63,359 nucleotides of DNA, filler included, from Reclinomonas americana ATCC 50394 (GCA_048213135.1; 5 parts of 3 records of this genome joined end to end with filler, not necessarily neighbours in it); one strand, 5' to 3'; numbered from the whole stretch's first letter, positions 275 to 60,700 are shown. Notes: generated by a model not told the origin, from the letters alone. Made by a program: numbers and translations.

Positions 275-1239
275 CTGCACGCAAGCCGCCGCCACCAGTC
301 GTGTCATGTGCTCCTCGTTGCCGTACAGCTTGGACGACAGCACCGTGCGCAGAGCCAGCGAAGTCTGCGCCTCGTCGTGCGGGTTGTCGAGGCGAGAGGT
401 GACCAGGGCTGTGGAGACGTACAAGTCAGGAGACGAAGGCGGCGAAGGTGATGAAATGCCGCGCGTCGTCCACTCAACTGTCGAGAACCTCGAGTGCCTT
501 GGCGGCCGCGCGCTCGTAACCCTCCAGAATCTGGCTCGGGTGCAGACCCATGAGAATGAGGCCCTCGGCCAGTGACAGGAACTCGCCCGCCAGGATCACA
601 GTCAGATTGGTGCCGTCGCCGACCTGCATTCACGAGAGTGAGAAAAGAGAGAGAGATTGCAAGTGCTGTGTGCACCACGCCCGCACCTCCTCCTGCTGCG
701 ACTTGGCCGCCAGAGTCACCATCTACCACACCAGCACAGGTGAGCACGCCGCGCAGCGCAGCAGGCACCGACAACGAGAAAACACACAGACCTTGGCTGC
801 CGGGTGTACGACCTCCAGCTGCTCCATAATGGTGGCCGCGTCGTGTGTTACAAACAGCTTCTCCAAGTGGTTGATGACCATCTGCACACACTGCGTGAGA
901 CACCACAACACGCACAACAACAACCACAGACACAAGTCTCAAGACCTTGTTCATGCCTGGGTGATGCACAAGTCAGCAACACAAACTGCACATCAATAGA
1001 GAGAGAGAAAAGAGGCACTCACCATTGGGGCCCAACGATGTGCGTGTGATAGTGCACAGGTTGCGCACAGCCTCTGCGCAGAGAGCACACGCGTGAGTGA
1101 GTGATCCCGAGTGGACAACTCACTCTCACAGAGAAGATAAACACAAACCAATGTTGCGCAGAACGGCCTCATCGACGCCACTCAAGTGCTTGACACCCTC
1201 CTTGAGGAGGCTGCCGAGGGTTCCACTCATGAACGACAT
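275..1239 (-). CDS. CCT8: T-complex protein 1 subunit theta (chaperonin), 5' part; continues past the window start
   Basis: Exons 1239-1149, 1073-1023, 956-946 (11 nt), 881-792, 722-687, 623-479 and 408-275 give LLKEGVKHLSGVDEAVLRNI...TSLGPNGMNKMVINHLEKLFVTHDAATIMEQLEVVHPAAK...QQEEVGDGTNL...SSKLYGNE, matching the CCT-theta N-terminus. All introns are GT-AG. Confidence 0.95.
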
Positions 1240-1764
1240 TTCTTCTTCTCTGTGTGTGAAGAGTGAGTGAGGACATTGCCACACAACACAACAATGTGCA
1301 CGAGAGAAGCACGCAGTGTGCATGTGGTGCGTGATGAGTGCGCATGTGCGTGAGAGTGACAGTACATGCATCGTCCTCGTGTGTGTGTGTGTGCAAGAGT
1401 GTGGGAGGAGGCATGGTGGGTGCTCGAGGATGTCACCAAGAACAACGCGCGCGCCATGTCACACAACACACGCACACACGCACGCACAACTCTCCTCCGC
1501 GCACGAGTGTGTGTGCGTGACACAACAAGCAATCACACACGCACGCACACACGCAGAGATGATAGAAATGCACATGAAGAGACAACTGCCAATCCAAACA
1601 CCCAACACAAACACACACACAAACGCACACACGCACACGCAGACACACGCATGACACAGACACACACGCAAGGCAGACGCACACTCACCGCGCAACACAA
1701 CACACACACGACAACACAACAATCCATCGATCGACGATCCACCACACCACACTTCAATCCAGCC

Positions 1765-2645
1765 ATGTCATCATCGCCGCTGATGCCGCTGGAGGCCTTC
1801 CTGAGCATGGAGGCACTACGCGGCGCCGCACGACTGCCACACTACTACGTCTACGCCGATTTGATCGGTCGCAAACGCTGGGAAGACGTGCGCATTGCAC
1901 GGACAGACGATCGCGTGGTGATGGCCGCGCGCGCGCGAGCCACGGCTGATGTTACGCTCGTCGGTGTCTTTGTGTCTTGTCTCGTTGCGCGCTCACTCTC
2001 TCTTTATGCGCGTAGTTGCATGTGATTGTGCCGTTGGCGGCCTCGGCGACGGTTACACTGGCGTCGTTGGCGGCGGCGCAGGCGCGAGCGCTGGAGGACT
2101 TTGGCGCGGCCGGAGGCACAGTGATCCAGTTGGGATTGGACTCGGCGGAACCGTACTTTCCGGTGGTGCGGAAGCGCGCCAAGAAGCAGCGCAAGTGGAC
2201 GGACATTAAGCGAATGGATTTGGAGGAGGAGGCAGAAGAGGCAGAAGAGGAAGATCAAGAGGAGACGAGTGCTGCTGCTGCTGCTGTGGTGGAGAAGGAT
2301 GTTAGTGATCATGCGGCGCCGGTGGGTGTCGTGTTTGCGTTTGTCAGTGGCTCCTCCAGCATCAGCTATGTCGCGTATCGTGCGGGTTTTCCGGCACGGC
2401 ACGATGCGCATGTCGTTGAGCAGCGGAAGAGAGTGGTGGGGGAGAGTGCGGCGGCCGGGCGTGGTCGGGCGGGGGGCAGGCAGCAGAGGCAGCGGGAGGG
2501 GAGGAGGCAGAGGGGGGTGGAGGAGGGGGCAAAGGTGGTGGAGGAGGAAGGGGCGAAGGTGGAGGATGCGGCTCCGGAAGTGGTGGCTGGGAGTGAGGAG
2601 GTGGTGGAGGCGAAGGCAGAGGTGGGGGAGACGGATGCTGTATGA
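1765..2645 (+). CDS. TSEN15: tRNA-splicing endonuclease subunit Sen15-like protein with an acidic insertion and C-terminal tail
   Basis: Exons 1765-1950 and 2016-2645. The blocks YYVYADLIGRKRWEDVRI, HVIVPLAASATVTL and VVFAFVSGSSSISYVAYRAGF occur in the order recalled for Sen15. Confidence 0.55.
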
Positions 2646-4216: not shown

Positions 4217-6871
4217 ATGCACAAGCCGGGAGGCAGTGCCGCCTCGCCGGTGCGACCAGGTAACGTGTTTATGAGTTGGTGCTGTATCTGTCTATCTTTG
4301 CCTCTCCCTGTCTCTGTCTGTGTGTGTCTCTGTCGTCGTTTATTGCATGCTGGGCGTGAGGAAATGTGCTGCATCTTGTGATTGCCTTCTGAGGTGGTGT
4401 CTTTTCGCAAACTTGTTTGCCGCGACGGTGTAACTTCTCGCACTCTGGTTGCCGGTGACACTGGGCATGGATGCCACTCGTGTACTCATTCTGTACCTCT
4501 GCGGTGTGTTTCACGCAGGCAATGTCGGCTCGCGGAGTGATACTTCCGCTTCGGGCCAGGTTGGTCTTGTTGATTATCCTGGTTGCCAAGTGTGCTTGTT
4601 TCCGGTCTCATCGATGCACATGCACGCGCAGGCAAGAGCGCCGCAGTCGCGTTTGTTTTCGACCTACGGCCTGGACCAGACGTCTTCTGCCTCCGCCTCG
4701 CCACCACCTGCTGGTGAAGGTGTGTTTATTTGTACAAAGTTGTGCAAGTGCGGGAGACATTGCTCCTCTGCGACCTCACTCTTCCTCTTGTCACCGCAGT
4801 ACGACGCCGCCCTGCCCCAGTACCCACGCAGTTGCGTCTGCAGTTTCCTTGTATGTGTGTGCGTGCGTCTTGGTTTTTCCTCGCTCATTTTTGCAACGGT
4901 CACACCCGCAGTCTTGGTGAGCTGCGCAGCGGCCGCGCAAAACGGCCACTTGGCGTTTGCGTCCGCTCCTCACCATCTCTCCCTCTTTTCTTCTTGTGCC
5001 ACAGGTCACGTGTCGTATGCAGCCGCCGGGGCCGGCCGCAGCGACTCCACGCACGGTATGTTCGCCTCGTTCGCATTTGTGTTTGCACCTTGTGTACTTT
5101 TTCTTAACCAATCGCCCCCCCGGAGCAGCCTCTTCGCCGCCATCGCCGCATGGCGCCTCGGCCGCCGCTCTCGGCCTCGACTCCACGGTGGCACTGACCC
5201 CGTCACCCGCCAATAACAAGATCACCGCCGCAGTTGCGTTTGCGGCGAATATCGAGTGCCTGCACACGGGTTGCGTCCTTTCACATGCCCTCACTCACTT
5301 GCTACTACTTGCCATGTGTCGCAGTTTCGCAGCGCGTATTTATCGGCATGCGGGCGCCAGCGGTTGGATCCCTCGCCCGAGTTGATGAAGGGCATTCGCA
5401 ACGCGATGAAGACGCACGTGCCGCTGGTGCGCCTGTCGATTTGCCACTCGTCACTGTCGGATGAGCACATTTTTGCGTTGGTCTCGGCGCTGCGCACGGA
5501 CTCGTGCATCAACGAGGTGCTGCTCAACCATGACAGCATTTCGGACCAGGTGCGTGTGTGTGTGCGTGTGTGATTCGTATGACTTGTGTGGTGAGATTTC
5601 GCGTGACCGACCTTTGCGTGCAGGGCGCGTCCATGATTGCCGAGATGCTATCGCATCGACCGAGCATTCAGAGCGTGGAGCTCTTTGGCAACTGTCTGAG
5701 TTGCGCTTCACAACTCCACAGCCACGTATGTTTTCGTTTGAGCACCATCCTCACACACATTGTCGTGTGCCGCAGCCGATGTGTGCTGCCGCGATTTTGC
5801 CGACATGTTGGCGACGAATCGCACGCTGAGACGCCTGAAGCTGGGCGACAATTCAATCGGGCCCAATGGTGCCGCGCTGCTGAGCGACGGCCTCTCGCAG
5901 AACCGCACGCTGACACAGCTGCATCTCGGTGGCAACAAGATCCGTGTCGAGGGTCTTGATCACATTGGTGTGTGTTTTCACGCACTTGCTTGTATTTTGG
6001 ATGTCGTGGTCTCATTTCCATGGCATCACAGCCACCGCTTTGCGCGGCAACAATGTGCTCACGTCGCTCGGTCTGCGCGACAATGATGTGGGGCCGGAGG
6101 GCATGCGCAGCCTGGCTGAGACGCTGAAAGATCGCGGGTGTGCGCTCTCCGATATTCAACTAAAGGGCAACAACATTGCCGCCGATGGTGAGCGTGGTCG
6201 TGTACATGTGTCTGTTTTATTCTACTCTTCTTTCTCTCTCTCTCTCTCTCAAGTCACTTCTTCCCTCTTCTTTCACTCTGCTGCGATTCTCGTTTCTCTC
6301 ATCTGCGTCTTGTCGTTGTGTCTCCCCTCAATTACTCCTTCATCGTTCTCGTTGCATTTTGTTCGTTGCTTTAGTTTGAACGTCTCAATTCGCACATTCT
6401 CTTGTCTCTCTTGTTCTTTTGTTTTGTGACGCCAGTCCTCTCTTGTCTCCCCGATCCGTCTATTTTTCACGTCTCTGCGATTTCTCACTTCTTCTAATTC
6501 GCTGGTTTGTTTCGCTTCTCACCTCGTGCATCCACATCTCACTTCTTCATTGTCTCTTTCTCTTTATTTCCTTCTCTCTTCCTCTTTCTCACTTTTCCTT
6601 CTCTCCATTCTTCTGCCCCCCTTCACCCCTTCCCCCTTTCCTTTCCCCTTCACCCTCCCAGGCGCCGCCCTCCTGGCCTCGGCACTGGAGCACAATCAGA
6701 GCCTGAAGGTGCTCGAATTGCAAAACAACTCAATCGGCGCCGTGGGCTGCAAGGCGCTGTGTTCGGCTCTGGTCAACAACCGCAGCGTGCACGCTCTCAA
6801 TTTCAATGACAATGACCTCGGCGACGACGGCGCCGAGGCCGTTGGCTGGCTGTTGCAGGTTAACACCTGCA
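4217..6871 (+). CDS. Ribonuclease-inhibitor-type leucine-rich repeat protein; N-terminal exons uncertain; interrupted by a gap
   Basis: Exons from 5325 give about 28-aa repeats such as NRTLRRLKLGDNSIGPNGAALLSDGL, NRTLTQLHLGGNKIRVEG, NNVLTSLGLRDNDVGPEG and NQSLKVLELQNNSIGAVG. The start at 4217 is tentative. Confidence 0.85.
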
Positions 6872-10527: not shown

Positions 10528-11822
10528 ATGAGGCTTCGAGCGGGAATGCATGGTGCCCAGGTAAGCCTTGCGCGCGCGCTCTCTCTCTCTCTTCCCTCTC
10601 TCTCTCTTCAGTGAATGACACTGATGTGTGTTTGTGCGTGTGTGACAGGGCTGGCGACCGACCATGGAAGACGAGGAGATTTGCGAGTTGGAGCTCAACA
10701 GGGCCTTCAACCTGTCGGGCTTTCCGGAGCCACACGCCTTCTTCGCCGTTCTCGATGGTCACTGTGGCAACATGGTGCGTGTGTGTGTCATGTCTCCACG
10801 TGTGTGTGTCCACTTCACCGTCTGACAAGATGACGACAGACCTCGAGGTACGCTCGCGATCACCTGGCGAAGAATGTGGCCAGCCACCCGTTCTTTGGCA
10901 GTTGTGTTCTCTTGCTGCTGCTCCTGATAATGATGATCTCGGTGGTGATGCTCACCCCACTTTCCGTGTGACGCACAGTCGACGCCCGACAGGCGTTCAT
11001 CAGCGGGTTCCAGAAGACCGACGAGGAGCTGCGTGCGGTGGAGGAGACCGAGTCGGGTTCCACCTGCTGCAGCGTGCTCATTCGGTGCGGTGATCGCGCA
11101 GCTGGTCGTTTTTCGATTCTCGTCCGCGCTCACATCTGCTTTTTGTGCTGCAGTGGCGATGAGGTGTTTTGCGCCAACTTGGGCGACAGCCGTGCCGTGC
11201 TGTGCGAGGATGGCTCGGCTGTGGCGCTGAGCGTCGATCACAAGCCGGACGAGTTGCGTCTTATATCTCCAAGCTCCGTTGGCGTCCACAGCTGGCTCAT
11301 ATTCTTGTGTGTGTGAAACAGTTCGTCGGAGAAGAGGCGCATTGAGGACCTCGGTGGTTTCGTGGAGATGGGCCGTGTGAACGGCATTCTCGCCGTGAGG
11401 TGTGCCGACCCGCCATGTGTACACAATTCTATGGTGTGTCATGGATTCGCTCACTGTGTTGCTGGCTAGCCGCGCGTTTGGCGACTTTGAGTACAAGCAG
11501 AATGGCAAGATGATGGTCGAGTGCACACCCGAGGTGGAGAGCCGCACCCTCGGCCCGTACTCCGAGTTCATCATCATTGCCTGCGACGGGTGTGTAGCAG
11601 TACTTTGTCTGTGTACTGCCTGTAGCTCGGCACTCAAACAATTCGCTGGACAGATTGTGGGACGTGATGTCGAACAGCGAGGCTGTCGGACGCGTCAGCG
11701 ACAAGCTGAAGGAGGGACTGGAGCTGAACGACATTGCCGAGTGGCTGTGCAAGGAGGCCATCAAGATGGGAAGCACCGACAATGTGTCAGCCATCATTAT
11801 TGTGCTCGACCACAGCGCCTGA
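10528..11822 (+). CDS. Protein phosphatase 2C (PPM family)
   Basis: Spliced product contains QGWRPTMED, FFAVLDGHCG, SGSTC, CANLGDSRAVL, LSVDHKP, GRVNGILAVSRAFGD, IIACDGLWDV and GSTDNVS. Confidence 0.95.
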
Positions 11823-22215: not shown

Positions 22216-22315
22216 NNNNNNNNNNNNNNNNNNNNNNNNNNNNNNNNNNNNNNNNNNNNTTAATTAATTAANNNNNNNNNNNNNNNNNNNNNNNNNNNNN
22301 NNNNNNNNNNNNNNN
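22216..22315. other. Artificial scaffold-joining linker
   Basis: 44 N + TTAATTAATTAA (stops in all six frames) + 44 N, identical at four places in the window. Confidence 0.97.
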
Positions 22316-28195: not shown

Positions 28196-28249
28196 GCACA
28201 CACACACACTGTAACACACACAGAGACGCGAGCTGATTGTCTTTTTGTG

Positions 28250-38000: not shown

Positions 38001-41000
38001 TCGACGNNNNNNNNNNNNNNNNNNNNNNNNNNNNNNNNNNNNNNNNNNNNNNNNNNNNNNNNNNNNNNNNNNNNNNNNNNNNNNNNNNNNNNNNNNNNNN
38101 NNNNNNNNNNNNNNNNNNNNNNNNNNNNNNNNNNNNNNNNNNNNNNNNNNNNNNNNNNNNNNNNNNNNNNNNNNNNNNNNNNNNNNNNNNNNNNNNNNNN
38201 NNNNNNNNNNNNNNNNNNNNNNNNNNNNNNNNNNNNNNNNNNNNTCCTGCCAGTGACGATCACGCATACCGGGGCTGCGCAGACTCGTAATGAGCGGCAG
38301 CTGCGGCTTGAACTCCACCACCTGGTTGTAAATCGTCTCGGCGATCGAAGCCAGCTCGTGCTGGCCCGAGTTCTTGAACTGACGAGCTGCACTCGTGGAA
38401 ACCCGATAGCTCGTGAGAAAGAAAGGTGTGCAAGAGAGAAGCGACTGGCTGCGACGCAACTCTGCTTGAACATGACACCATTGACGGTGTTGACGTTCTT
38501 CTCAATCAGTTCCGCGTCCAGCTCCACAAACGGATCATTGTCCCATGAGTAGCGCCACTTGAGCCAGTCATCCGCATTGGTCCACAGGAGGTAGAACGGC
38601 TCAAATTCCTTGACGGTGCCGGCCAGCTTCTGGTACTCGGTCTGCTCCTCGCCAAACAGCACCTCGCGGCTGTTGAACTCCTTGGCACGAGCCTCGCAGT
38701 CGGCCAGATCACGGCGAATGTGCTTGACCTCAGCCGCCACTTCTTGCACCTTGTCGAGATCCGTGTGACGGTTGAAGCGACTGACTTGCGCAGACAGACG
38801 ATCCACGTCCTTGTCGAACACGTGCTTCTCCTGCTCCATGCTCTCGCGGAAGTTGTCTTGCGCCGTGTCCAGGCTCTTCGAGGTCTGCTCCATCAGTATC
38901 TCAATCTGGCGAGGCCAGAACACCGCCGACCACATGCTCTTGAAGTCGTCGTCGGCAATCGGGCACTCCAAATTCTCCAGCATGTCAAAGTACTGGCGCA
39001 TCTCACGNNNNNNNNNNNNNNNNNNNNGATTTCGGAGCAGATTGGCTTTGAGGTGTATCCTGGACGACAGATCAAGACACTACAGGTGCGTGCATGTGAT
39101 CCATCGTCGTCGTCGTCTGCTACGTGCTGCGATCTAACGCTTGAGATATGGTGTGTACAGGATGTCCATCGCCTCAAACTCACCAACTACCTCGACTCGA
39201 TCAACGCTGTGGCCGAGAAGGCCAACAAGGAGTACAACTTGGAGGTGGCGCTTTCCGGCATGCAGTCCGACTGGGCCCCCATCGAGTTCGACGTGGTGCC
39301 TCACAAGTTGCGTGTTGCTTGTTGTTGTCACTCGTCGTTGACATGCTCGCGAGTGCTGACCGCGTGCGTGTGTGTGCCACCAAATCAGGGACAGCGGCAC
39401 GTTCATTCTGCGCGGTCTCGACGACGTGTGGCAGATGCTCGACGACCACATTGTCAAGACGCAGTCAATGGGCTTCTCGCCATACAAGAAGCCGCATGAG
39501 GAGGGCATTACGAAGTGGGACAAGACGCTGAACCGCATCTCCGACATTCTCGACGAGTGGGTCAAGTTCCAGCAGGGCTGGATGCAGAACGAGCCCATTT
39601 TCAGCTCCGACGACATTATGGAGCAGCTGCCGAACGAAGGCAAGAAGTTCCGCGCCATCAACCGCCAGTGGCGCAAGACCATGGACGCCGTCAAGGCGAC
39701 TCCCAATGTGGTGGCCTTTTGCGAAGCCCACCCGCGTCTGCTGGACACCTTCAAGGAGTGCAATGCCACCATTGATGAGATCCAGAAGGGTGAGTCGCGA
39801 CTGAGGGCAAGGGGGGAGGTGTGTGTGGGAAGAATGCGATTTTGCTCACTGCTCCATCAGGACTCAACGAGTACTTGGAGAAGAAGCGTCAGGCCTTTGG
39901 TCGTTTCTATTTCCTCAGCGACGGCGAGTTGCTGGAAATTCTGTCGCAGACTCGCGAACCGCGTGCCGTGCAAAAGTACCTGCGCAAGTGCTTCGAGGCC
40001 ATTTTCTCGCTCGAGTTCGAAAAGGACAACAAGATGACCAAGATGTTCAGGTGTGTTGTGTTGTGTTGTGTTTTCTTGCACTCCCGTGCTGCTCGTGTAA
40101 TAACCGCGACTCGTTCTCTCAGTGGCGAGGGTGAGATGGTTCCGTTCTCACGTGGCATCTACCCGGAGGGCAATGTGGAGCAGTGGCTGTGTGTCGTGGA
40201 GACGGTGATGAAGGAGAGTGTCAATGAGCAAATTCGACTCTCTCTGGAGGACTATCGCATCACTCCGCGTAATGTGCGTTCTCTTGTGTGCGTGTGTCTG
40301 TTGTTGCTCCAGCCTGACACGTGCGCCCTGTTTTCGCAGCAATGGGTGCTGAAATGGCCGGGCCAAGTGGTGCTTGTCGGCTCGCAGACGTACTGGACCT
40401 CCGAAGTGGAGGAGACGCTCAATTCGGGCAAGGATCTCGCCGGCTACTTCAAGCAGTGCCAGGACCAGCTGATTGATCTCACGGCTGTCGTCCGAGGACC
40501 AATGACCAAGTTGCAGCGCATTGCCATGGGTGCCCTCATCACCATTGATGTGCACGCCCGTGATGTGGTCAAGCAGATGGTCGCCGAAAAGGTGTGTGTG
40601 TGTGTGTGTTGCTGCTGTGGGCCGCGTGTTTAGTGTGCGCCTGGCTCACGCACACGCGCGGCATTAGGTGACAAGCACAGCCGATTTCGAGTGGAGCTCG
40701 CAGCTGCGCTACTACTGGAGGGAGAAGGATCTGTACATTCAGCAGGTCGAGGCCAAGTTCATCTACGGCTACGAGTACCTCGGCAACACCATGCGCCTTG
40801 TGATTACGCCGCTGACCGATCGCATCTACCTCACCCTCACTGGTGCCCTGCATTTGCACCTCGGTGGCGCTCCTGCCGGCCCTGCCGGTACTGGCAAGGT
40901 ACGGAACGACGAGTTTCCTCGCTGAACAATGGGGAGACGGAAACTCACCGATTTTTTTGTTGGTTCTGCAGACGGAGACGACCAAGGATTTGGCCAAGGC

Positions 41001-44000
41001 CATGGCCAAGCAGTGTGTCGTGTTCAACTGCCAGGAAGGCCTGGACTATCTGGCCATGGAGAAGTTCTTCAAGGGACTGGCTATGGCTGGTGCATGGGCT
41101 TGCTTCGACGAGTTCAACCGTATCGACGTCGAAGTGCTGTCTGTCGTCGCTCAGCAAATCACCGAGTTGCAGCGTGCCATCTCTCTCGGACTGGCGCAGA
41201 TTCAGTTCGGCTCGTCGATCATTCGTGTCGATCCCTCGTTTGCCGTGTTCATCACCATGAACCCCGGTTACGCTGGCCGGTATGTGATGTTTGGCCTGTC
41301 GTAGAGTTCGCTGCCGAATACCATTGACTCATTTGCCCCCTGCAGTACCGAGCTGCCCGACAACCTGAAGGCGCTGTTCCGCCCCGTCGCGTGCATGGTG
41401 CCCGATTACGCTCTGATTGCCGAAATCCGTCTGTTCTCGTTCGGTTTCGTCGACGCCTACCGCCTGGCACGTAAGATGGTCGCCACTTTCCGCCTCTCGT
41501 CCGAGCAGCTGTCCAGTCAGGATCACTACGATTTCGGCATGCGCGCTGTGACGACTGTCATCAACGCCGCCGGTCTGCTCAAGCGTGATGATCCGAACGG
41601 TGAGTCGCGAGGAGGGGGTATTTATCTGTTGGTCAGTGTGCTGATTTTTTACGACAGGCAATGAGGAGCTGCTGCTGCTTCGTGCGCTGCGCGATTCCAA
41701 CTTGCCCAAGTTCCTCACCGACGATATCACCCTGTTCAACGGTATCATTAGCGATTTGTTCCCGGGTGTCAACTTCCCAGAGCCCGACTACGAGAACCTG
41801 CTGCGCGGCATCAACAATGCGCTGGTGCACTTCAACCTGCAACCGGTGCCTGGTTTCATTGAGAAGACGCTGCAGTTATACGAGATGACAGTGTTGCGCC
41901 ACGGCCTCATGCTTGTCGGTCCAACCGGTTCTGGCAAGACCATGTGCTACAAGGTCCTGCAGCGGTGAGTGGAGAGATACTGCTGCGACATCCCCGCGAA
42001 TCATACTGGAGACGATCCACTCACTCTACCGTTATGTTGTTGTGCAGTGCCTTGACGGAGCTGTGCGATTTGCCGCGCTACGAAAAGGTCAAGACCTTTA
42101 TCCTCAATCCCAAGTCCATCACCATGGACCAGCTGTATGGTGGCTCCGACCCCATGACGCACGAGTGGACCGATGGCATTATTGCAGTGTTGCGTACAGT
42201 AGTTTACTGGTGGTGCCTGTGACTTCTTTCATCTATGATGCTTAAAACCACACTCGCCATCAGGCTGTTCCGCAAGGCCGTGCGTGACGATTCGCCCGAC
42301 AAGAAGTGGATCATTTTCGACGGACCTGTCGACGCGCTGTGGATCGAGTCGATGAACACGGTGCTGGACGACAACAAGAAGCTGTGCTTGGTCAGTGGTG
42401 AAATCATTTCGCTGTCGCCCGAAATGACCATCATGTTCGAGGTGGAGGACTTGGCCGTCGCCAGTCCTGGTGAGTGACGCCTTCCCCTTGTCTATATCTT
42501 TGGCGCTGGTTGTTGCTAACCTCTTGTGTGTGTGCGCGCGCGCAGCTACGGTGTCTCGCTGCGGTATGGTGTACCTGGAGCCCATCATGTGTGTCGGCAC
42601 TCAGGCGCAAGTGACGTCGTGGCTCAACACACTGCCGGAGGTCCTCAAGCCCTTCCGCCAGCAGCTGCAGGAGCTCTTCGACTACTACATGGACGACGCG
42701 CTCACGTTTGTGCGCCGTAACTGCTCCGAGTACATTCCGTCGGTGCCCAACAACCGCACGGCCTCGGTGTTCCGCCTGCTGGATTGCTTCTTCGACAAGG
42801 TTTGTGAGATTTGTTGGCTGCTGCTGCGCGTTGGGTGGGTTCGTGCGCCTCAAAATCTGTTTTTTCTTTTCTGCCAGTTTATCGAGCGAGAAGGCGTGCC
42901 GCGCCCGCAGGCTCTGATTGACCAGCTCGCGCGCATGGTGGAGCCGCTGTTCTTGTTCTCGCTGGTGTGGGGCGCTGGCGGTTCGGTCGATGGCAAGTCG
43001 CGCACCATGTTCAATGAGTACATGCGCGGTCGCATGCGCTCCAAGGGCGTGCGTATGCCGATTCCAGAGGCCAAGAGCGTGTACGACTGGCTCTTTGTGG
43101 AGGACACGTGTGAGTGGAAGGCGTGGATGGAGACTGAGCCTGCGTTGCGTCACTTGTCAAGGAAGAGAAGTGTTGTGTGGCGAGGGTTTTGCTGATTAAT
43201 GGTTGCCTGTGCAGATTTGTGCTCGACCCGAAGACCCCGTTCCAAGACATTATCGTGCCCACCACCGACACCATCCGCTACAAGTGGCTGCTGCAGCACC
43301 TGTGCACTCATGGCAAGCACATGATTGCCATTGGTCCGACCGGTACCGGCAAGACCTTGACGCTGCAGGTGTGTTTGCTGGAAATACACGTTTATGTTTG
43401 TACCATGCATGCGCGCTGACTGGCTTGGCTTGTGTTCGTGCAGGACAAACTGATGAGGGGCATGCCGGAGAGCTTTGTGCCGATCTTTATCAGTTTCTCT
43501 GCGCAGACGTCTGCCAACCAGACGCAGGACATTCTCGACGGCAAGTTCGAGAAGCGCCGCAAGGGTGAGTTTGCATGCAGTGGGGCGCGAACCATCTCCT
43601 GCGCCTGGCACTCACGTGTGTGTGCTCTTTCCCTTTCGCAGGCGTGTTTGGCCCGCTGCCGGGTCAGAACTTCACCATCTTTGTCGACGACTTGAACATG
43701 CCTGCTCGTCAGCAATACGGTGCGCAGCCGCCCATTGAGCTCATCCGCCAGTGGCTCGACCACGGTGGCTGGTACGATCGCAAGTTCCCCGACGATACGC
43801 CTTTCATGCGCATCATCGACGTCAACTGGGTCGGCACTCTCGGACCGCCTGGTGGCGGTCGTAACCCGGTCACCAACCGTATGCTGCGCCACTTTAACTT
43901 TATCACCTTCCCGGAGATGAGCGACGAGTCCATGACGACTGTGTTTAGCACCATTCTCGGTGCGTGATGCGGGAAGAGCGCAAAAGAGAGAGAGAGAGAG

Positions 44001-47000
44001 ACACTCATTCCTCGTTGTGTAGGCACGTACCTTTCGGCCTACTTCCCGCCTGAGCTCGGAGCCATGTGCAAGAACATTGTCGAAGCTGCCGTCACGCTGT
44101 ACAACACCATTGTGGAGGAGTTGCTGCCGACGCCGTCCAAGTCGCACTACACGTTCAACTTGCGTGATCTGGCCAAGGTATGTTCCTAAAGACGATGGTG
44201 TTATGAGTCGCGCAAGACGGCCGCTAATATCTCTCACTCCAGGTGTTCCAAGGCGTGCTGATGGGCGACCCGAAGACAGTGGGCGACAAGAAGGCCTTGC
44301 TGCGCCTGTGGGTGCACGAGTCGCAGCGTGTGTTCCGCGATCGTCTGGTCGACAACATCGATCGCAAGTGGTTCGACGATCAGACCGAGAAGCGGTGCGT
44401 GTGCTTTCGTTCCCCCCCCCCTGAACTCCGCGTGATGGTCGTATTCATTTCGTGTGTCTGTATGTTGTTGCGGCTGTGCAGTCTTCGCAGCTACTTCAAT
44501 CTGGGATACAGCGATCTGGGTGCCGCCGAGCGCCTGCTGTTTGGTGACTTTATGGTGCCGGGTGCCGATCCGCGCATCTACGTGGAAATCAGCGACCTCC
44601 ATCACTTGAAGTCGGTTCGTTGTCTGTGGACCACCCAGAGGGTGTACGTGTGTGCGTGCACGACCTCATCCACGCCCGCAGGTGCAAGAAGAGTACATGG
44701 AAATGTACAACGCCGTCAACTCGAAGAAGCCACTGACCCTGGTGCTCTTCTTGGACGCCATTGAGCACGTCGCGCGTATCTCGCGTGTGTTGCGCCAGCC
44801 GGCCGGCAATGCCCTCCTGCTTGGTGTGGGTGGCTCTGGTCGTCAGTCGCTGACGGCACTCGCTGCGTTCATGTCGGACTACAAGGTGTTCCAGATCGAG
44901 GTGAGTGTGTGTTGACACGAGAGGAGAGAGAGAGACCGTGGTGGCGCTGAATGGTTTCGTTTCCGCAGATTACCAAGAGCTACAGTGTCGCCGATTGGCA
45001 CGAGAACATGAAGACACTGCTGAAGGCCGCCGGTTGCGAAGGCCAGCAGATGGTGTTCCTGTTCTCCGACACGCAGATTGTGTACGAGTCGTTCCTCGAG
45101 GACATTAACGGCATTCTCAACTCTGGTGAGGTGCCGAACCTGTGGGAGGTCGCCGATCTGGAGGAGATTTACGGCGCCATGCGTCAGATTCTTGCCGCCG
45201 CCAACGAGCCGGTGCGTTGACGTGCTTACTCACTCGCTGCGCGCATTTGCTGTGCACCATACTGACTGACTGTGTGCGTGTGTGGGGGTGCAGATTTCCA
45301 AGATCAGCATGATGGCACGCTTCAACAAGCGTGTGAAGCAGAATCTGCACATTGTGCTGGCCATGAGCCCTGTCGGCGAGGCCTTCCGCAACCGTCTGCG
45401 TATGTTCCCGTCGCTGGTCAACTGCTGCACCATTGACTGGTTCTCGGCGTGGCCCGATGAGGCTCTGCGGTCGGTCGCCGTTGCGCAGCTTGGCGACGTG
45501 CGCCTGGACGACTCGCTCAAGCACAACATTGGCGAGATGTGTGTGAACATTCACCAGAGTGTCGAGGAGATCAGTGTCAAGTTCTTGGCCATTCTGCGCC
45601 GCCACAACTACGTGACGCCGACCTCGTATCTGGAGCTGCTGTCGACCTTCAAGACGCAACTGGCGACGCAGTCGGATGCTCTCGGCAAGCAGAAGCGCCG
45701 CTTCACCGTTGGTCTCGACAAGCTGATGTCGACCGAGGTGCAAGTCAATGACTTGAAGGTGTGTCGCGAAATCAAAGTCCCTGATTGCCCTGCATGATAC
45801 TCAAACGATGATGTGTGTGTGCTGCGCAGGATGATCTCGTGCGCATGCAGCCGAAGCTTATCGAGACGCAGAAGCAAGTCGACGAGCTGATGGTGCAAAT
45901 CGCTCACGATACCGAGGAAGCGAGTTGCGTCGATGTGCGCAGCTTGTCGGTGACAAGAGTATGGACTGATGAGAACATTGTTTCTACGCAGAGGCCACCC
46001 AGGAAATTGTGCTGAAGGATGAAGCCGAAGCCACGGCCAAGAAGGAGGAATGCGAGAGCATCAAGGCATCTGCCGAGGCCGAGCTGTCCGTCGGTGCGTA
46101 CTCTTGTTGATCGGTAGTCGCCATGTTACGCTGTTGATGTATTTGTATGCTGACCTGTTTCCTTTGTGCGTAGCCTTGCCGGCTCTCGAAAAGGCGCTGG
46201 TGTCGCTGAAGGATCTGAAGGTCAATGATATTACTGAGGTCGCCAACTACACCATCCCGCCGGCACTTGTGAAGACAACGCTGGAAGCCGTGTGTATCAT
46301 GAAGAAGGTGCCGCCGAAGATGGTCGGCGAAGTCGGTAAGAAGGTGGCCGACTACTGGGACAATGCCAAGGAAATGCTGAAGAAGGCCAACTTGGTGGGT
46401 GGCGTGTGCCTCTGTTTTTTTCCTCACGCTGCTGCTGTTTTTTGCTCATATACGTATGTGTGCGAGCAGCTGCGTGACGAAATGATCAACTTTGACCGCG
46501 ACAACATCCCCGAGGCCATCATCGTCAAGGTGCAACCGTACATCGACAACCCACAGTTCGTGCCCGACCAAGTCGCCAAGAGCTCCAAGGCCTGCACGGC
46601 CATGTGCGCCTGGGTGCATGCCATGTACAACTACCACCACACCAACAAGAAGTTGCGTTTGTCTGACACACAATGGGGGTGTTGGCATAAGCAGGCACTC
46701 ATGACGTGTGTGCGTGTGTGCAGGATCGAACCGCTGCGTGAGGCTCTGGCCAAGGCGCAGGCCGAGCTCGACATTGTGATGGCCAGTTTGGCCAAGACCA
46801 AGGCCAAGCTGACCGATGTGGAGAACAAGCTTGTCGATCTGCAGCTGCAGTACGACGAGAACGTGGCCAAGAAGGAGGAGCTGGAGCACCAAGTCGAGAT
46901 GTGCACCAAGAAACTGGACCGCGCCGAGCGTCTGATTGGTGGTCTCGGCGGTGAGAAGACTCGTTGGCAGGAGCAAGTGGTGCGCTTGGCGATTGCCGAG

Positions 47001-49190
47001 GCCAACATTGTCGGTGACGTCGTGTTGGCCTCTGGTGCCATTGCGTACGCCGGTCCGTTCACGGCCGTGTACCGTGCCGAGCTGTACCAGCAGTGGCGCT
47101 CCAAGTTGGCAGAATTGGGGTACGTTGTCGCCAGCGTCTTTGCAAGTGGCATGTCCGTTTGTGTCTGATCGTGTGTGTGTGTGTGNNNNNNNNNNNNNNN
47201 NNNNNNNNNNNNNNNNNNNNNNNNNNNNNNNNNNNNNNNNNNNNNNNNNNNNNNNNNNNNNNNNNNNNNNNNNNNNNNNNNNNNNNNNNNNNNNNNNNNN
47301 NNNNNNNNNNNNNNNNNNNNNNNNNNNNNNNNNNNNNNNNNNNNNNNNNNNNNNNNNNNNNNNNNNNNNNNNNNNNNNNNNNNNNNNNNNNNNNNNNNNN
47401 NNNNNNNNNNNNNNNNNNNNNNNNNNNNNNNNNNNNNNNNNNNNNNNNNNNNNNNNNNNNNNNNNNNNNNNNNNNNNNNNNNNNNNNNNNNCATTAACAG
47501 CATTCAATGCGACCCCAACGGCGATGTGCGCGCGACACTCGGTGACCCCGTGCAGATTCGTGAGTGGTCCATCTCCGGTCTGCCGTCGGATTCGCTGTCT
47601 ATCGAGAATGCCATTATCTTGTCCAAGGCTCGCCGCTGGCCGCTGATGATTGGTGAGTGGTTGTGGTGGTGGTGCGAGCAACTGAAGGGAATACGTGTGC
47701 TCATTTTTCGACTCGCACAGATCCGCAAGGACAGGCGAACAAGTGGATCAAGAAGATGGAGGGTGAGAAGGGATTGGAGGTTCTGAAGCTGAGCGACAAG
47801 GATTACCTGCGCACGCTGGAGAATGCCATCCAGTTCGGTCGCCCTGTGCTGCTGGAGAACATTGGCGAAGAGATTGATCCGGCTCTCGAACCCGTGCTGC
47901 AGAAGCAGGTATGTTTNNNNNNNNNNNNNNNNNNNNNNNNNNNNNNNNNNNNNNNNNNNNNNNNNNNNNNNNNNNNNNNNNNNNNNNNNNNNNNNNNNNN
48001 NNNNNNNNNNNNNNNNNNNNNNNNNNNNNNNNNNNNNNNNNNNNNNNNNNNNNNNNNNNNNNNNNNNNNNNNNNNNNNNNNNNNNNNNNNNNNNNNNNNN
48101 NNNNNNNNNNNNNNNNNNNNNNNNNNNNNNNNNNNNNNNNNNNNNNNNNNNNNNNNNNNNNNNNNNNNNNNNNNNNNNNNNNNNNNNNNNNNNNNNNNNN
48201 NNNNNNNNNNNNNNNNNNNNNNNNNNNNNNNNNNNNNNNNNNNNNNNNNNNNNNNNNNNNNNNNNNNNNNNNNNNNNNNNNNNNNNNNNNNNNNNNNNNN
48301 NNNNNNNNNNNNNNNNNNNNNNNNNNNNNNNNNNNNNNNNNNNNNNNNNNNNNNNNNNNNNNNNNNNNNNNNNNNNNNNNNNNNNNNNNNNNNNNNNNNN
48401 NNNNNNNNNNNNNNNNNNNNNNNNNNNNNNNNNNNNNNNNNNNNNNNNNNNNNNNNNNNNNNNNNNNNNNNNNNNNNNNNNNNNNNNNNNNNNNNNNNNN
48501 NNNNNNNNNNNNNNNNNNNNNNNNNNNNNNNNNNNNNNNNNNNNNNNNNNNNNNNNNNNNNNNNNNNNNNNNNNNNNNNNNNNNNNNNNNNNNNNNNNNN
48601 NNNNNNNNNNNNNNNNNNNNNNNNNNNNNNNNNNNNNNNNNNNNNNNNNNNNNNNNNNNNNNNNNNNNNNNNNNNNNNNNNNNNNNNNNNNNNNNNNNNN
48701 NNNNNNNNNNNNNNNNNNNNNNNNNNNNNNNNNNNNNNNNNNNNNNNNNNNNNNNNNNNNNGGAGCATGTGTGCACGCGTGTGTGGTGCTCGGTACTTAA
48801 TCCATTGTGCTCGCAGGTGTTCAAGAAGGGCACGTCGCTGATGATCAAGCTCGGTGAGAACGACATTCCGTACAACACCGACTTCCGGCTCTACGTCACC
48901 ACCAAGCTCCGCAATCCGCACTACTCGCCCGAAATCTCCGTCAAGGTCACCCTGCTCAACTTCTTCATCACCACCGATGGTTTGGAGGATCAGTTGCTGG
49001 GCGTGCTGGTCGCCAAGGAGAAGCCGGATCTGGAGCGGCTGAAGAACGAGCTGGTCGTTGAAAACGCGCGCTCGCGCAACAAGCTGCAGGCCATTGAGGA
49101 CCTCATTCTCAAGATGCTCAGTGAGAGTGGAGAAGACATTCTGGAGGAGGAGGATCTCATCAACACGCTCGCCCAATCCAAGGTCACCTC
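35070..49190 (+). CDS. DNAH1: Axonemal inner-arm dynein heavy chain, DNAH1-type; about 42 visible introns, internal gaps, cut after AAA5 by a linker
   Basis: N-terminal [26 protein letters not shown] and [14 protein letters not shown]...[11 protein letters not shown]-loops [24 protein letters not shown] and GVGGSGRQS, then stalk and [19 protein letters not shown]. Confidence 0.93.
38245..39007 (-). CDS. DNAH1: Dynein tail exons on a mis-oriented contig
   Basis: [15 protein letters not shown]...FEPFYLLW...[12 protein letters not shown]. When flipped, it joins 39028 in frame (CAG GA|G ATT TCG = Q E I S). Confidence 0.93.
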
Positions 49191-49290
49191 NNNNNNNNNN
49201 NNNNNNNNNNNNNNNNNNNNNNNNNNNNNNNNNNTTAATTAATTAANNNNNNNNNNNNNNNNNNNNNNNNNNNNNNNNNNNNNNNNNNNN
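49191..49290. other. Artificial scaffold-joining linker
   Basis: 44 N + TTAATTAATTAA + 44 N. Confidence 0.97.
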
Positions 49291-50173
49291 CTTGATCGCA
49301 CCCTCCCACTCCTCAATGTACGCGTCGAGCATTTCCTGTGCCACAGGCGCAACACCGTCAGCATACCACCCGTGCAGAGGCTGCTGCTGCCACGCAACTC
49401 GTGATCGACTCGACTCGGTCGACATGAACACCGAGTAGAGCGTGTTGATCTTGGCCACCACGCTATGCACCGCCACGTACGGAATGCCAAACATGTAATC
49501 ACGCTCCACCTTGACGAAGCGATACGGATGGTTCATGTTGTTCTCCCTCATCTGCGTCACCTGCCGCGTGGCAAACACCGCCGTCTCTCCCTCGGTGGCT
49601 GCGGTAGAATGAGTATCGAGTGCACCAGTCGCATGAGGTGTGCACAACACGCAACTGAGCTCGCCGAGCGACAAGCGCCCAAGAAAGTCCTTGTACGCAA
49701 ACCGATGCACCGGCACACGCACATCATCGGCCACAAAGAAGATGCTGTGAGAGCACAACTTGATGCGTCCTTCCACCTTGCTGAGCAAGTCAAGGGAGAA
49801 TACGATTTTCATCAATGTGATCTTTTCACAGTCGTGCGCACAGAGAGACACCCACTCTCACGCACCGAGTAAAGTCGCCATTGATGTAGAACAAGGCCAC
49901 AAAGTCCTCAAAGTAATACTCGCCCTCACTGTGTGTGTCAATCATTCACCATCATCAGCATCATCATTATCATCAGTTGCTGTTGCGTGCATCACTCCGC
50001 ACAACAATGAACACGCAACGACAACAAGAGCAAGTTGAACTGGGCACACGCAAGAGTGGCGCCCCGACACCGCGTGAGTGAAATGGCAAACCACAAGCAC
50101 AAAACTCACGCACGCGCGGACACACACTCAAACACACACGAACCTGCTCACGGATGCGCGCCACGTTGCTCAT
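49291..50173 (-). CDS. NSMAF: N-terminal exons of the FAN/NSMAF-like protein on a mis-oriented contig
   Basis: QFNLLLLSEGEYYFEDF...KVEGRIKLCSHSIFFVADDVRVPVHRF matches the recalled FAN N-terminus (RFSLLLLxLEEYYFE...GSLKICSKSVIFEPD). Confidence 0.8.
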
Positions 50174-50349
50174 GACGCTCACACCGCCTGCGTGCACTCC
50201 GTCACACACGCAATCGAAGGGACGGGACAAGTGTGTCCCTTCATGCATGATCGCGCGCAAGCAACGCAAAAGAAGTGGAAGTGTGAGCAACGGGGGTGCG
50301 TCTCCCATCCCTCAGCATGTCTCTCGACNNNNNNNNNNNNNNNNNNNNC

Positions 50350-53696
<3,347 letters not shown>

Positions 53697-53788
53697 GAAT
53701 TAAAAGTGAGAAAAAGAACGCATTGCATGTGCTCTCTTGACAGCGTCACTGCTTCGATTCGTCGCATACCTTTACACACAAACATGCA

Positions 53789-53888
53789 NNNNNNNNNNNN
53801 NNNNNNNNNNNNNNNNNNNNNNNNNNNNNNNNTTAATTAATTAANNNNNNNNNNNNNNNNNNNNNNNNNNNNNNNNNNNNNNNNNNNN
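53789..53888. other. Artificial scaffold-joining linker
   Basis: 44 N + TTAATTAATTAA + 44 N. Confidence 0.97.
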
Positions 53889-53948
<60 letters not shown>

Positions 53949-54006
53949 AAGTGAGAGAGACAAGAGAAGCAGCATGGACTGCGCCTACACTTGAGTGACA
54001 CAGACC

Positions 54007-57632: not shown

Positions 57633-57732
57633 NNNNNNNNNNNNNNNNNNNNNNNNNNNNNNNNNNNNNNNNNNNNTTAATTAATTAANNNNNNNNNNNN
57701 NNNNNNNNNNNNNNNNNNNNNNNNNNNNNNNN
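57633..57732. other. Artificial scaffold-joining linker
   Basis: 44 N + TTAATTAATTAA + 44 N. Confidence 0.97.
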
Positions 57733-60700
57733 GGCTGGTGTTGAGCGAGCCACACCTCGCGTGTCGGTGGATTCGGGGCGACGTGCGGCCGAGGCGCTGT
57801 TGCCGGCATCGTTTGTGGTACAGCCGCAGCAATTGCGTCCGCCGCAGCCCGTGGCCACCACCATTGGTGTGCCACACTTGTCGGGGGATGGCGGTCCGCG
57901 TCGGAGCGATGTGTATTCGTTGCCTGTGGCTCAGTTTGAAGACTTGCGGCTGGCCGCACGCGTCCTGTCACAGCAGCAACAACAACAAGAGATGCAACTA
58001 CAGCAGCATTTCCAACAGCAACTGCAGCAACATCAACAGCGGCAGGAGGAGGAGGAGGCGAAAAAGTCAGGAGTGCGGCGTCGATGCACCGCGAGACGTT
58101 TCTGGATAATCTTCTTGATTGTTGCTTGTATCCTCTTGCTGCTCGGCTCCGCGGCTGGAGTCTTGTATTTGTACCTGCGGCCAGAGACGGTGCCGCAGAA
58201 AGTCACCAGTGCGTTCTCCCTCGCGCCTCGTTTCCCCGTTCTCTGTTTACCGTTTATTCACTTTTGATTCTGCATGTGTGTCCTTCCCTCCCTCCCACCA
58301 GCTACTACCATTGTCGTTGGGTCGACATCGGGAAGCGTCACAACCACAGACGCCACACTCACAGTTCGTGGCGGTGTTGCCGCGTCGTCCGGAAAGTTCC
58401 GTTCTCTTGTCTTCCCTGTTTGTATTACCATGTTCGTACTCATTTTTTGCTCTTCGTGCGCGTGTGCAGCATATCGACGAACAACACGGACGTGGGCTAC
58501 CGCTTCTCATCAACATCAACAGGCATGTTTGCTGTCGGCGTACTCAATCTGGCATCGTCTGTAATCCCCGGCTCCGGTGATTCCCGCACCGTCTCCGAGC
58601 GTGTGTCGTCGTCGTCGTCGTCCTCCTCCTCCTCCCCGTCTGCAACAATGTGCAGCCCAACGGCAGCCAGCGACGGCCCGACTGCCCCGCCGACAACTCT
58701 AGGCAGTCCTAGTAGCAGCAATAGTCGTAATTATAGGAATCAGCCGCGGCAGGCGGCAACTGCCGCCCCGCAGTGCCAGTCGAGCGCCGGCGGCACCGCC
58801 TCGGCCAATGTCGACGTCCAGGCGCGCGATGTCGACACGGTGCGCAGCAGCACCTCGGATCTGGCGTTTTTGCACGACGCCAAACAAGTGTTGACGTTTA
58901 CGGCGCTCTCCGACTCGTTGGAGGCCGCACTTTTTGACGCCAAGTTGCGCCTTGCCGTGCCTTGTTAACTATATTTCCCTCCCAGTGTCTCAATTATCGT
59001 TCGTCGTACGCAGCGTGTACATTATGCAACGCAGTCTCTACCTGGGCCACGCGGCATCGGACTCAGCCACCCTGTCGGAACGCTACCGCGCCCGACGGCG
59101 TGTTTTGCAAGACGACTCGGGTGTTCTGCGCCTCAATCCGGACTCGGCGTACTCGTCGGTCACCATCGGACAGTCGACGTTGGTCGTCAATAATAGCACG
59201 CTGACTGTCGCCGGTACCGTCTATGCGCCGGGGTACCAGCTCTCCAGCGCACCCTCTGCGTCCGGCGTGTTCTACGCCAACTGTTGCGTCTCCGCTGCAC
59301 TTGATTGTATTGCCTTTTTTTCTTATCGCTGACAACTCTTGGACTTTTGTTAACGCTCAGCACAAGTTGTCATTGGCAATTCCGGCCAGAATCGCATCAA
59401 GGTACCGGCCTCCACCAAGGATCCTGTTGTTATCACGGGCCCTCTTGAAGTGGAGCAACCTATCTTTGTCGGCCTTGACGATGTCGGCAATCGGATCCTG
59501 AGTCTGACCAGTACCAAACTGACGGTGGGCGACAGGCAAACGACCACCGACGTGGAGTCGGTTGGCCGCCTGGCGGTAACGGGCCCGAGTATTGCCCTCA
59601 ACTTGCGCATGGCTCTCGTGTCGGGTGTGTCTGACTTGACGGTCGGAGTCGACACGGATGTGGTGAGAATACCGGGCATGCTGAGCGTCTCCAAGGCGTC
59701 CACCTTTGCGGCCGCCCTCACTGCACAATCCACATTGACGGTCACTGGAGCAACCACACTTCAAGGTGCCGTCACGGCATCCTCTTCAGTGACTGTGACC
59801 GGTACGCTTTCCGTGCAGGATGCGCTGACGGCACGCACACTGGCGGTCACTGGTGCCACGAATCTCGGCTCCACACTGTCGGTGTCCTCTGCCGTCACGC
59901 TCTCGTCGACATTGGCGGTGACCAGCGACGCCACATTATCGGGCGCGCTGATTGTCAACGGCGTGGTGCAGGCTCGGAGCTCGGTGGTAGTCACTGGCGA
60001 TACGACCATCGCCGGCACTCTGACCACCAACGGAGCGGCGGTCCTCAACGGCTCAGTGACACTGCCGAACGGCAGTGCGCTCACCGTCGGCACCGGCGGC
60101 GCAGTATTCAACGGCACCCTGCGCACCAACGGACAGACGACTCTGGCCGGCCCTGTGCAGATCAACAACGGCAGTCTGCTGACTGTCGGTACATCGGGAG
60201 CCACATTTGCTGGTCCGATCACGATGCAGGCCGGTCAGCTGCTGACTGTCGGCACCGGCGGCCTCACGCTCGGCGGCGCGCTGCAAGTCAATGCGGCATC
60301 GTCATTCAGCGGCTCTGTGGCCGTGACTGGCACAAATACGTTGACAGTCGGCACCGGAGCTGCGACATTCAATGGCCCACTGCGTGCCACGGCCACCTCC
60401 GTCACCACGCTCGACGGCACGCTGGCGGTCAATGGTGCCGCAACTTTCACCGGAGCCGTAAGCGTGACCGACACCGGTTCCTTCACCGTCGGTGTCGCTG
60501 GCATCGTCTCCAATGGACCAATCAGTGTGGCCAATGGTGTCACGCTCACTGTTCCGTATCTGCTTGTCGTTTGCTGTGCGCCCACTCACGTTCACCATAC
60601 TCATTCGTTTTTGCTTCGGTATGCAGGTGGGCACCGGAGTGACGACGCTTGGCGGCGAATTGCGTGTGAGGTGTGTGCATTTTCCTTGTGTCTCTGTGTG

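Follow-up and report, generated by a model that had tools for sequence, protein, structure and literature searches.

The 5′ splice sites of a 63,359-base stretch of DNA from Reclinomonas americana ATCC 50394 (the window) occur in two forms, and the form that an intron carries follows the last base of the preceding exon (position −1). Class I donors have G at +5 by definition, and shifted donors (class II) were defined by T at +3, G at +6 and no G at +5. Among the 49 reference introns fixed by homology in an axonemal dynein heavy chain gene and in a FAN-like gene, exons that do not end in G are followed by 15 shifted donors and 1 unshifted donor, and exons that end in G by 0 shifted and 33 unshifted donors (Fisher exact test, p = 1.0e-11). 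Within the window, the analysis bears out both donor forms, where they are cut and their dependence on the −1 base, far beyond chance.

Introns of the dynein and FAN-like genes

The reference introns come from two genes, each with a part on a flipped contig.

35875..49190, plus strand: axonemal (inner-arm type) dynein heavy chain gene, approximately the N-terminal three quarters (Pfam Dynein_AAA_lid and MT, tblastn, spliced alignment)
50349..53700, plus strand: FAN-like gene with BEACH and WD40 domains (Pfam Beach and WD40, spliced alignments, homologue names)
49291..50328, minus strand: flipped contig with the N-terminal part of the FAN-like gene (spliced alignment)

Most of the homology-fixed introns lie in the dynein gene, which gaps and an inverted contig break up. 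This gene ends at a gap (49190) at approximately residue 3273 of a 4139-residue homologue, so that the C-terminal quarter lies outside the window, and the flipped contig (38245–39007) carries residues ~758–984, in the numbering of the oomycete dynein P0024, on the minus strand. Identity to full-length homologues reaches 55.5% at best, with several at 51–54% from unrelated groups; oomycete, kinetoplastid and chytrid dyneins are all approximately 50% identical to the dynein of the window, and a metagenome scan with one dynein exon returned 80 loci, the best of them 57% identical. An atlas search gave generic dynein clusters only. Homologues of the second gene are named 'factor associated with neutral sphingomyelinase activation'. 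Spliced alignments used 11 full-length homologues for the dynein and 10 homologues for the FAN-like protein, and were made by protein-to-genome dynamic programming that admits GT-AG introns only. On a test slice this aligner returned 13 introns, all of which were in the hand-built list, with a single miss at the slice end.

Boundaries were also scored with the GT-AG requirement lifted: for each junction, every boundary pair was scored against up to 11 homologues. At well-supported dynein junctions the top scores are a few sliding ties, among which there is exactly one GT-AG pair. The GT-AG pair ranks first of all pairs at 42189 and at 46652, second at 43144 and fourth at 39307, in each case no more than 3 points from the top, and all 49 reference junctions are solved by GT-AG. 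With 26 GT-AG introns removed, the segment 39161–47119 forms a single open frame of 2020 amino acids that is collinear end to end with residues 1004–3028 of P0024 (1048 identities in 2038 columns). Further upstream, the frame of 35875–38006 opens when six introns are removed (36313, 36640, 36993, 37307, 37555 and 37805); in this poorly conserved part of the dynein tail, the introns at 36993, 37307 and 37555 gather just 3 of 11 homologue votes each, and none at 37805 exceeds one. The class II introns of the dynein gene, together with its one unshifted donor after a base other than G, are as follows (exon bases are in lower case and a slash marks the cut).

36993..37066, plus strand: class II intron, aga/GTTCCGT...CAG/g (3 of 11 homologues; its 74 nt must be removed for an open frame)
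37307..37383, plus strand: class II intron, agt/GTTGCGT...CAG/t (homologues, open frame)
37555..37632, plus strand: class II intron, aaa/GTTGCGT...CAG/t (boundary scan, homologues, open frame)
37805..37891, plus strand: class II intron, ttc/GTTGCGT...CAG/c (open frame; gene finder in three of three settings; no vote of 2 or more)
38387..38460, minus strand: class II intron on the flipped contig, aga/GTTGCGT...CAG/c (5 of 11 homologues)
39307..39388, plus strand: class II intron, caa/GTTGCGT...CAG/g (no other GT-AG pair scores within 10 points of it; open frame, spliced aligner)
40274..40339, plus strand: unshifted donor after a base other than G, aat/GTGCGTTC (GTGCGT), the sole such case with homology support
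42189..42263, plus strand: class II intron, agt/GTTGCGT...CAG/g (rank 1 of all boundary pairs with 11 homologues; open frame, spliced aligner)
43144..43214, plus strand: class II intron, tgc/GTTGCGT...CAG/a (boundary scan, open frame, spliced aligner)
45924..45991, plus strand: class II intron, cga/GTTGCGT...CAG/a (required for an open frame)
46652..46723, plus strand: class II intron, gaa/GTTGCGT...CAG/g (rank 1 with 11 homologues; open frame)

The FAN-like gene contributes the following donors.

50019..49929, minus strand: class II intron, gtc/GTTGCGT (chosen by 6 of 10 homologues)
49655, minus strand: donor proposed in an earlier reading of the sequence, called by the gene finder alone
50750..50811, plus strand: class II intron, aat/GTTGCGC...TAG/g (10 of 10 homologues)
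51127..51184, plus strand: class II intron, caa/GTTGCGT...TAG/g (10 of 10 homologues)
51507..51578, plus strand: class II intron, gct/GTTGCGC...CAG/c (9 of 10 homologues; the best discriminator between GT-AG and a cut G/TT..AGN)
52404..52482, plus strand: class II intron, cga/GTTGCGT...CAG/a (5 of 10 homologues)

Two further donors of the FAN-like gene, both after G, fit neither form well: aag/GTTATTGC at 52982–53060 (6 of 10 homologues) and aag/GTCAGCTC at 53377–53449 (7 of 10 homologues). In the dynein gene, the stretch 45992–46394 is matched by two fragments from public assemblies, P0130, with 94% identity to the query in the part that aligns, and P0167, which belongs to the same 90% cluster. 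P0167 reads through the position of the intron at 46094–46173, as would a relative that lacks this intron or a contig derived from cDNA, and it turns non-homologous after KKANL, where the window has the intron at 46395–46469.

The two-form pattern had been proposed in a reading made from the sequence alone, with a hand count in these two genes of 17 shifted donors among 19 after A, C or T and none after G. The second figure stands, at 0 of 33 homology-supported introns; the first becomes 15 of 16 by homology, and 17 of 19 is reached just by adding the unverified donors at 49655 (minus strand), 51857 and 51649.

Motif counts and predicted introns across the window

The same tie is seen in motif counts, which are independent of gene models. 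HGTTGCGY, in which H is any base other than G, occurs 60 times in the window as against 29.69 ± 5.39 expected from dinucleotide shuffles, and 0 of 100 shuffles reached 60; GGTTGCGY stands at chance level (6 observed, 7.92 ± 3.05 expected). The unshifted motif behaves in the opposite way: GGTGMGT is found 63 times (27.32 ± 4.63 expected), and HGTGMGT shows a smaller excess (142 observed, 99.9 ± 9.45 expected; 100 shuffles in each case). The shifted motif is thus enriched only after bases other than G, and the unshifted motif mainly after G. Counted on both strands, GTTGCGT has 44 copies, compared with 7 of GTCGCGT, 4 of GTAGCGT and 17 of GTGGCGT. Many of the HGTGMGT copies listed look like GT/CG-rich repeats. 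The most frequent 7-mers of the window are microsatellite words of the (CA)n/(GT)n and (GA)n/(CT)n kinds (204 and 125 copies), and GT-rich runs are frequent after donors, where they disturb donor calling.

A replicate was obtained from the remainder of the window with a Viterbi gene finder, which combines codon log-odds trained on the window, an acceptor matrix and a two-class donor mixture over intron positions +1 to +8. Because the donor term holds no exon bases, the exon end plays no part in donor scoring. The gene finder is noisy, recovering 39 of the 49 reference introns. Outside 35.6–53.8 kb it returned 13 gene models with 69 predicted introns, in which exons not ending in G precede 22 shifted and 14 unshifted donors, and exons ending in G precede 1 shifted and 32 unshifted (Fisher p = 1.1e-7). 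Several of the 14 unshifted predictions after bases other than G look doubtful, as they lie inside GT repeats. The shifted form is a major class, as had been claimed, with 15 of 49 homology-supported and 23 of 69 predicted introns, and its dependence on −1 is repeated (15 of 16 versus 0 of 33 in the reference set, 22 of 36 versus 1 of 33 in the replicate). A single donor matrix over −3 to +8 over-predicts, giving 205 introns, and misses 4 of the 5 plus-strand class II introns of the FAN-like gene; a gene finder without splice signals recovers just 12–18 of the 26 known dynein introns.

The window is eukaryotic nuclear DNA rich in short introns, with a GC content of approximately 58% among called bases and 3,727 N in 17 runs. 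Four gaps have the form N44-TTAATTAATTAA-N44 (22216–22315, 49191–49290, 53789–53888 and 57633–57732; three were inspected directly). The sequence between the N44 blocks is presumably a six-frame-stop linker used for concatenating contigs. Gaps of this type make the window a pseudo-scaffold, whose adjoining pieces may not stand in their true order or orientation, and two contigs between gaps (38245–39007 and 49291–50328) are flipped relative to their neighbours. Such a draft of concatenated contigs with many gaps, analysed with tools that allow GT-AG introns alone, could in principle create the pattern, either through an extra T from sequencing or assembly or as a by-product of the aligner and the gene finder. 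We consider this extremely unlikely. A random overcall would not track the preceding exon base or stay within one heptamer, TT is no long homopolymer, and the motif statistics need no gene model. Moreover, the same aligner found 0 shifted donors among 46 introns at 12 dynein loci of other organisms taken from metagenomes. A sequencing overcall in particular was rejected on the dependence on −1 and on the enrichment of HGTTGCGY but not of GGTTGCGY.

At the level of single sites, the 37 coordinates of the sequence-only reading (30 on the plus strand, 7 on the minus strand) bear the motif attributed to them, on the strand given, save that the GT of 26599 stands two bases upstream (cc/GTGCGTCC at 26597). 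Fifteen of its 31 shifted sites are supported by homology, and 11 more are gene-finder calls under one or more of the three settings; five (1951, 19699, 25008, 51857 and, on the minus strand, 54174) have neither kind of support. Three sites listed as shifted donors after G (25970 and, on the minus strand, 17322 and 18745) are among the GGTTGCGY copies that occur at chance frequency, and their status as donors was not confirmed.

The 23 class II introns predicted outside the reference genes are gene-finder calls.

5700..5775, plus strand: predicted class II intron, tga/GTTGCGC (all three settings)
58944–59013, 59283–59360 and 60551–60626, plus strand: class II introns predicted in one long gene of low homology (gene score 442; all three settings)
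8362–8434, 8767–8870, 10901–10978 and 11253–11321, plus strand: predicted class II introns
19938–20012, 28826–28891, 29245–29313 and 55552–55627, plus strand: predicted class II introns
13832–13767, 13175–13109, 15594–15530, 19065–19004 and 18369–18300, minus strand: predicted class II introns
18142–18067, 23172–23114, 24110–24040, 34156–34080 and 33484–33418, minus strand: predicted class II introns
23839–23775, minus strand: predicted class II intron, the sole one after G

Other genes of the window encode a mitochondrial carrier (27554–29122, minus strand), a RagA/Gtr1 GTPase (19924–20883, plus strand, interrupted by a gap), an M28 peptidase (32316–34320, minus strand) and an aspartyl-protease-like protein (12088–14637, minus strand). 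A long gene of approximately 1480 codons (58525–63356, plus strand) has a weak bactofilin-like match alone.

Anatomy and recognition of the two donor forms

The anatomy of the two forms was counted over the homology and predicted sets together (class I, n = 73; class II, n = 38). Class I donors follow a G in 61 of 73 cases (32 of 33 in the homology set) and have a degenerate intron side, with G (57) or A (9) at +3, C (34), T (22) or A (15) at +4 and T at +6 in 53; the commonest hexamers are GTGCGT (18), GTGAGT (12) and GTGTGT (12). Class II donors follow A (18), T (14), C (5) or G (1; 0 of 15 in the homology set), and their intron side is fixed: T at +3 in 38 of 38, G (29), T (5) or C (4) at +4, C at +5 in 36 of 38, and T (31) or C (6) at +7. 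Their heptamers are GTTGCGT (21), GTTGCGC (5), GTTCCGT (4), GTTTCGT (4) and four singletons. Exon-side and intron-side information are therefore anti-correlated, class I pairing a −1 G with a degenerate intron side and class II pairing its absence with a fixed heptamer. The class II pattern amounts to GU, an extra base and the normal block, as seen by setting GTTGCGY against the commonest class I hexamer, GTGCGT. The shared heptamer G-K-T-N-N-G-Y that the sequence-only reading had drawn from both forms fits 15 of 15 class II and 31 of 33 class I donors of the homology set. A one-base displacement of class I does not by itself give class II: the GCG core of class II is near-fixed, compared with the free +4 position of class I, and would call for specific recognition.

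In length and acceptors the two forms are alike. Introns are 58–124 nt long, with class medians of 71 and 72.5 nt, and they end in CAG in 65 of 73 class I and 35 of 38 class II cases (CAG or TAG in 108 of 111 overall). A CTNAY-like branch motif was seen by eye 20–30 nt before the 3′ end in both classes, among 10 introns inspected. Introns of both forms appear to be genuine short GT-AG spliceosomal introns. The gene models place 20 of 38 class II introns in phase 2, as against 15 of 72 in class I (chi-square, p = 0.002). The base just before a phase-2 intron occupies the middle of a codon, where no silent change is possible, and the excess suggests that having a second donor form eases the coding constraint on this base. 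Two other origins for class II were examined and rejected. An introner or transposon family is not apparent, as an all-versus-all blastn of the N-free introns among 118 gave 28 hits, each a GT-rich low-complexity match of 13–26 nt. The U12-type donor motif, [AG]TATCCTT, is present in 0 of 38 class II donors.

Pairing with U1 was examined through predicted duplexes. With the canonical U1 5′ end, median duplex energies are −6.25 kcal/mol for class I, −1.55 kcal/mol for class II and −2.65 kcal/mol for class II with the +3 U removed; removal of the extra U improves pairing in 38 of 38 class II donors, and G+1 pairs with U1 position 9 in just 4 of 38. The shifted register, with G+1 opposite C9, did not give better pairing with canonical U1 in the predicted duplexes of the 38 donors. 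Shifted-register donors in human, as treated by Roca and Krainer in 2009, reportedly make up a small part of a large and degenerate set of donors. For the window, altered recognition may fairly be inferred, but the pairing calculations weaken its simplest version, a Roca–Krainer shift on canonical U1, which would be insufficient. In a scan of all 16,384 possible sequences for U1 positions 3–9, ACGCACC was best for both classes in the proposed registers; with this guide too, the donor without the extra U pairs better in 38 of 38 (−9.2 versus −6.75). Pairing with guide AUACUUACCUG or with AUACGCACCUG gains from the extra U in 0 of 38 donors, and pairing with AUACGCAACUG in 36 of 38; whenever U1 has C at position 8, the extra U makes the duplex weaker in 38 of 38.

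A gain from the extra U is confined to guides that carry A at position 8 (ACGCAAC), where it is seen in 36 of 38 donors (median −10.6 versus −7.05 kcal/mol), and this is also what recommends a model with two guide RNAs. A conventional U1 would read class I, and a U1 variant or another small nuclear RNA (snRNA) fully complementary to GUUGCGU would read class II, presumably in the way that U11 reads U12-type donors, with no exon contribution. The near-invariant heptamer and the scarcity of intermediates (GTTGAGT, 1 of 38) agree with this model, and passages of one report (PMC12621601) place on record a protist with two U1 genes that differ at their 5′ ends. By itself, however, a second guide does not account for the avoidance of −1 G in class II (1 of 38) or for the rarity of class I after other bases, and the CTNAY-like motif and CAG acceptors, which look alike in both forms, make the remaining machinery seem shared. 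We regard two independent guides as possible but on the unlikely side. An Rfam scan of the window gave no family at gathering score, and no snRNA gene within the window.

A bulge offers another way to accommodate the extra base. U1, and later U6, would then pair in the normal register, G+1 facing C8, with the U at +2 or +3 looped out. G+1 would stay where it normally lies, the spacing to U6 would also be accounted for, and a 'bulge +2/+3' register is documented for human donors in the passages drawn on here from PMC4856993. A −1 G would add a pair to such a duplex and should be favoured, yet it is found in 1 of 38; and the bulge costs energy with no return. When bulges are allowed in the prediction, the donor lacking the U still comes out ahead in 38 of 38. 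We consider a bulged U improbable.

The most economical reading is one of two forms of a single heptamer with two cut positions, chosen according to the −1 base, and we give it an even chance of being right. Class I is G/GURNGU, in which the exon-terminal G is near-obligatory and the intron positions are degenerate (GTGCGT, GTGAGT, GTGTGT or GTAYGT). Class II is H/GUUGCGY: the exon ends in any base but G, GU is followed by an additional U, and the heptamer is near-invariant. This form would be used where the coding sequence offers no exon-end G. The recogniser would read one heptamer, G-K-U-G-C-G-Y, with a mandatory first G that would be the last exon base in class I and the intron's own G+1 in class II. 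Cleavage would always fall 5′ of the first GU, so that recognition of class II would be one base out of register. Because the extra U lowers predicted pairing to any U1 with C8, this rule needs one of two conditions. Either G is demanded opposite U1 C9 for reasons other than duplex stability, for instance by U5 loop 1 or through a base-specific contact, or there is a second U1-like guide with the 5′ end ACGCAAC. The ACAGA box of U6 normally pairs with donor positions +4 to +6. Class II in the usual register would present G, C and G to U6 at these positions, and under the out-of-register rule U6 would then have to tolerate one extra base, as a bulge, between the cut and the G. The scarcity of −1 G before class II may arise because exons ending in G can use the larger sequence space of class I. 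With rather less than even confidence, we propose that this lineage has rewired 5′ splice-site recognition such that about a third of its introns are read out of register, through a changed U1 with an absolute requirement for G opposite C9 or through a second, ACGCAAC-type U1.

Several points weigh against the out-of-register reading. In the duplex model, a single U1 gives the extra U no thermodynamic reason, which leaves the central step of the mechanism unexplained; the energies themselves use unmodified U, a generic nearest-neighbour model (ViennaRNA) and guessed U1 sequences. The replicate set comes from a gene finder with 39 of 49 recovery, and as its donor model was trained on the reference set, the class frequencies in the replicate are not independent, and just the tie to −1 is. 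To speak of a genome-wide rule is to extrapolate from 63 kb. Junction placement rests on homology, open frames and the GT-AG rule, and in 10 of 15 class II introns the protein is the same after both intron ends are slid by +1 (fixed flanks, 10–11 homologues); the junction at 38460 slightly prefers the slide (+6).

That slide corresponds to a different cut, G/UUGCGU...CAGN/, by which all exons would end in G and the distance from the cut to GCGU would be the same in both forms. It would give U1 and U6 one ruler and make the exon-terminal G universal. The two cuts produce the same mRNA if the base after AG is G, and otherwise an mRNA with one base different. The slide requires introns with UU...GN ends whose last base is unconstrained and stands directly after a perfect YAG. 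In the five junctions where it changes the protein, it costs −4, −2, −6 and −52 in four, and the sum is +58 in favour of GT-AG. The largest cost arises at 51507, where, as the sequence-only reading had anticipated, PHP becomes AHP: a conserved BEACH proline is turned into alanine, at −52 BLOSUM points over 10 homologues. We consider the downstream cut very improbable; GT-AG appears to hold as the right cut for class II.

Known donor systems and significance

The closest known relatives of class II are the shifted-register donors of human genes, such as ACA/GUCAAGUAU (PMC4856993, Tan et al. 2016). As far as the passages of that article go, the likeness is direct: an extra base separates GU from the stretch paired with U1 positions 3–7, G+1 would face C9 and the cut is still at GU. 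Unlike the human shifted donors, those of the window make up approximately one third of introns, share one near-fixed heptamer and are tied almost absolutely to an exon end other than G; furthermore, their shifted duplex with canonical U1 is predicted to be very weak, with the G+1–C9 pair in 4 of 38.

U2-type donors have been divided into two major classes, AG//GUNNN, which leans on U5, and NN//GURAG, which leans on U6 (PMC11732430). To judge from the parts of that work considered here, the window resembles this division in that information is split between exon and intron sides and donors without an exon G have the stricter intron motif. The U5- and U6-leaning classes share one register and overlap broadly, whereas in the window the split at −1 is near all-or-none and class II has an inserted base; unlike them, both forms in the window keep a G five bases after the first G of the heptamer. 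The 38 class II donors do not follow //GURAG in the normal register, having U at +3 in 38 of 38 and C at +5 in 36 of 38. As with U12-type introns, there is a second class with a rigid 5′ motif independent of the exon end, but the motif here is GTTGCGY, and the CTNAY-like motif and CAG ends look like those of class I.

In Sulcionema specki, a member of the diplonemids, whose donors are of the form (G)/GTATG, two U1 genes with different 5′ ends both fit the same donor logo about equally well, according to passages of PMC12621601. U1 genes with different 5′ ends are, in concept, the simplest hardware for two donor forms; as those passages describe them, the S. specki variants come without a matching split of donors, unlike the two-form pattern here. 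A full-text literature search, which entries under the organism's name, figure logos and supplements could escape, returned no description of the pattern, and the heptamer, searched as DNA and as RNA in full text, was met in primers and unrelated RNAs only. The pattern of the window differs from these closest concepts in that the shifted form is a major class, the split at −1 is nearly all-or-none, a single fixed heptamer is used and canonical U1 offers no explanation.

How the exact cut site is fixed is debated, in particular the shares of U1 pairing, of the hand-over to U6 and U5 and of the exon-terminal G. Shifted and bulged registers have so far been known only as rare, weak human donors studied singly. 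If a third of an organism's donors use a single, sharply defined shifted heptamer, and one exon base makes the choice, that organism would offer a natural experiment. At a practical level, gene finders built on one position-weight matrix miss class II donors. If the out-of-register reading is true, a shifted donor register would here, for the first time in any genome, follow a rule dictated by the last exon base and be no rare exception, and comparing the U1, U5 and U6 RNAs and the proteins U1C, Luc7 and Prp8 with those of relatives could reveal what sets the register.

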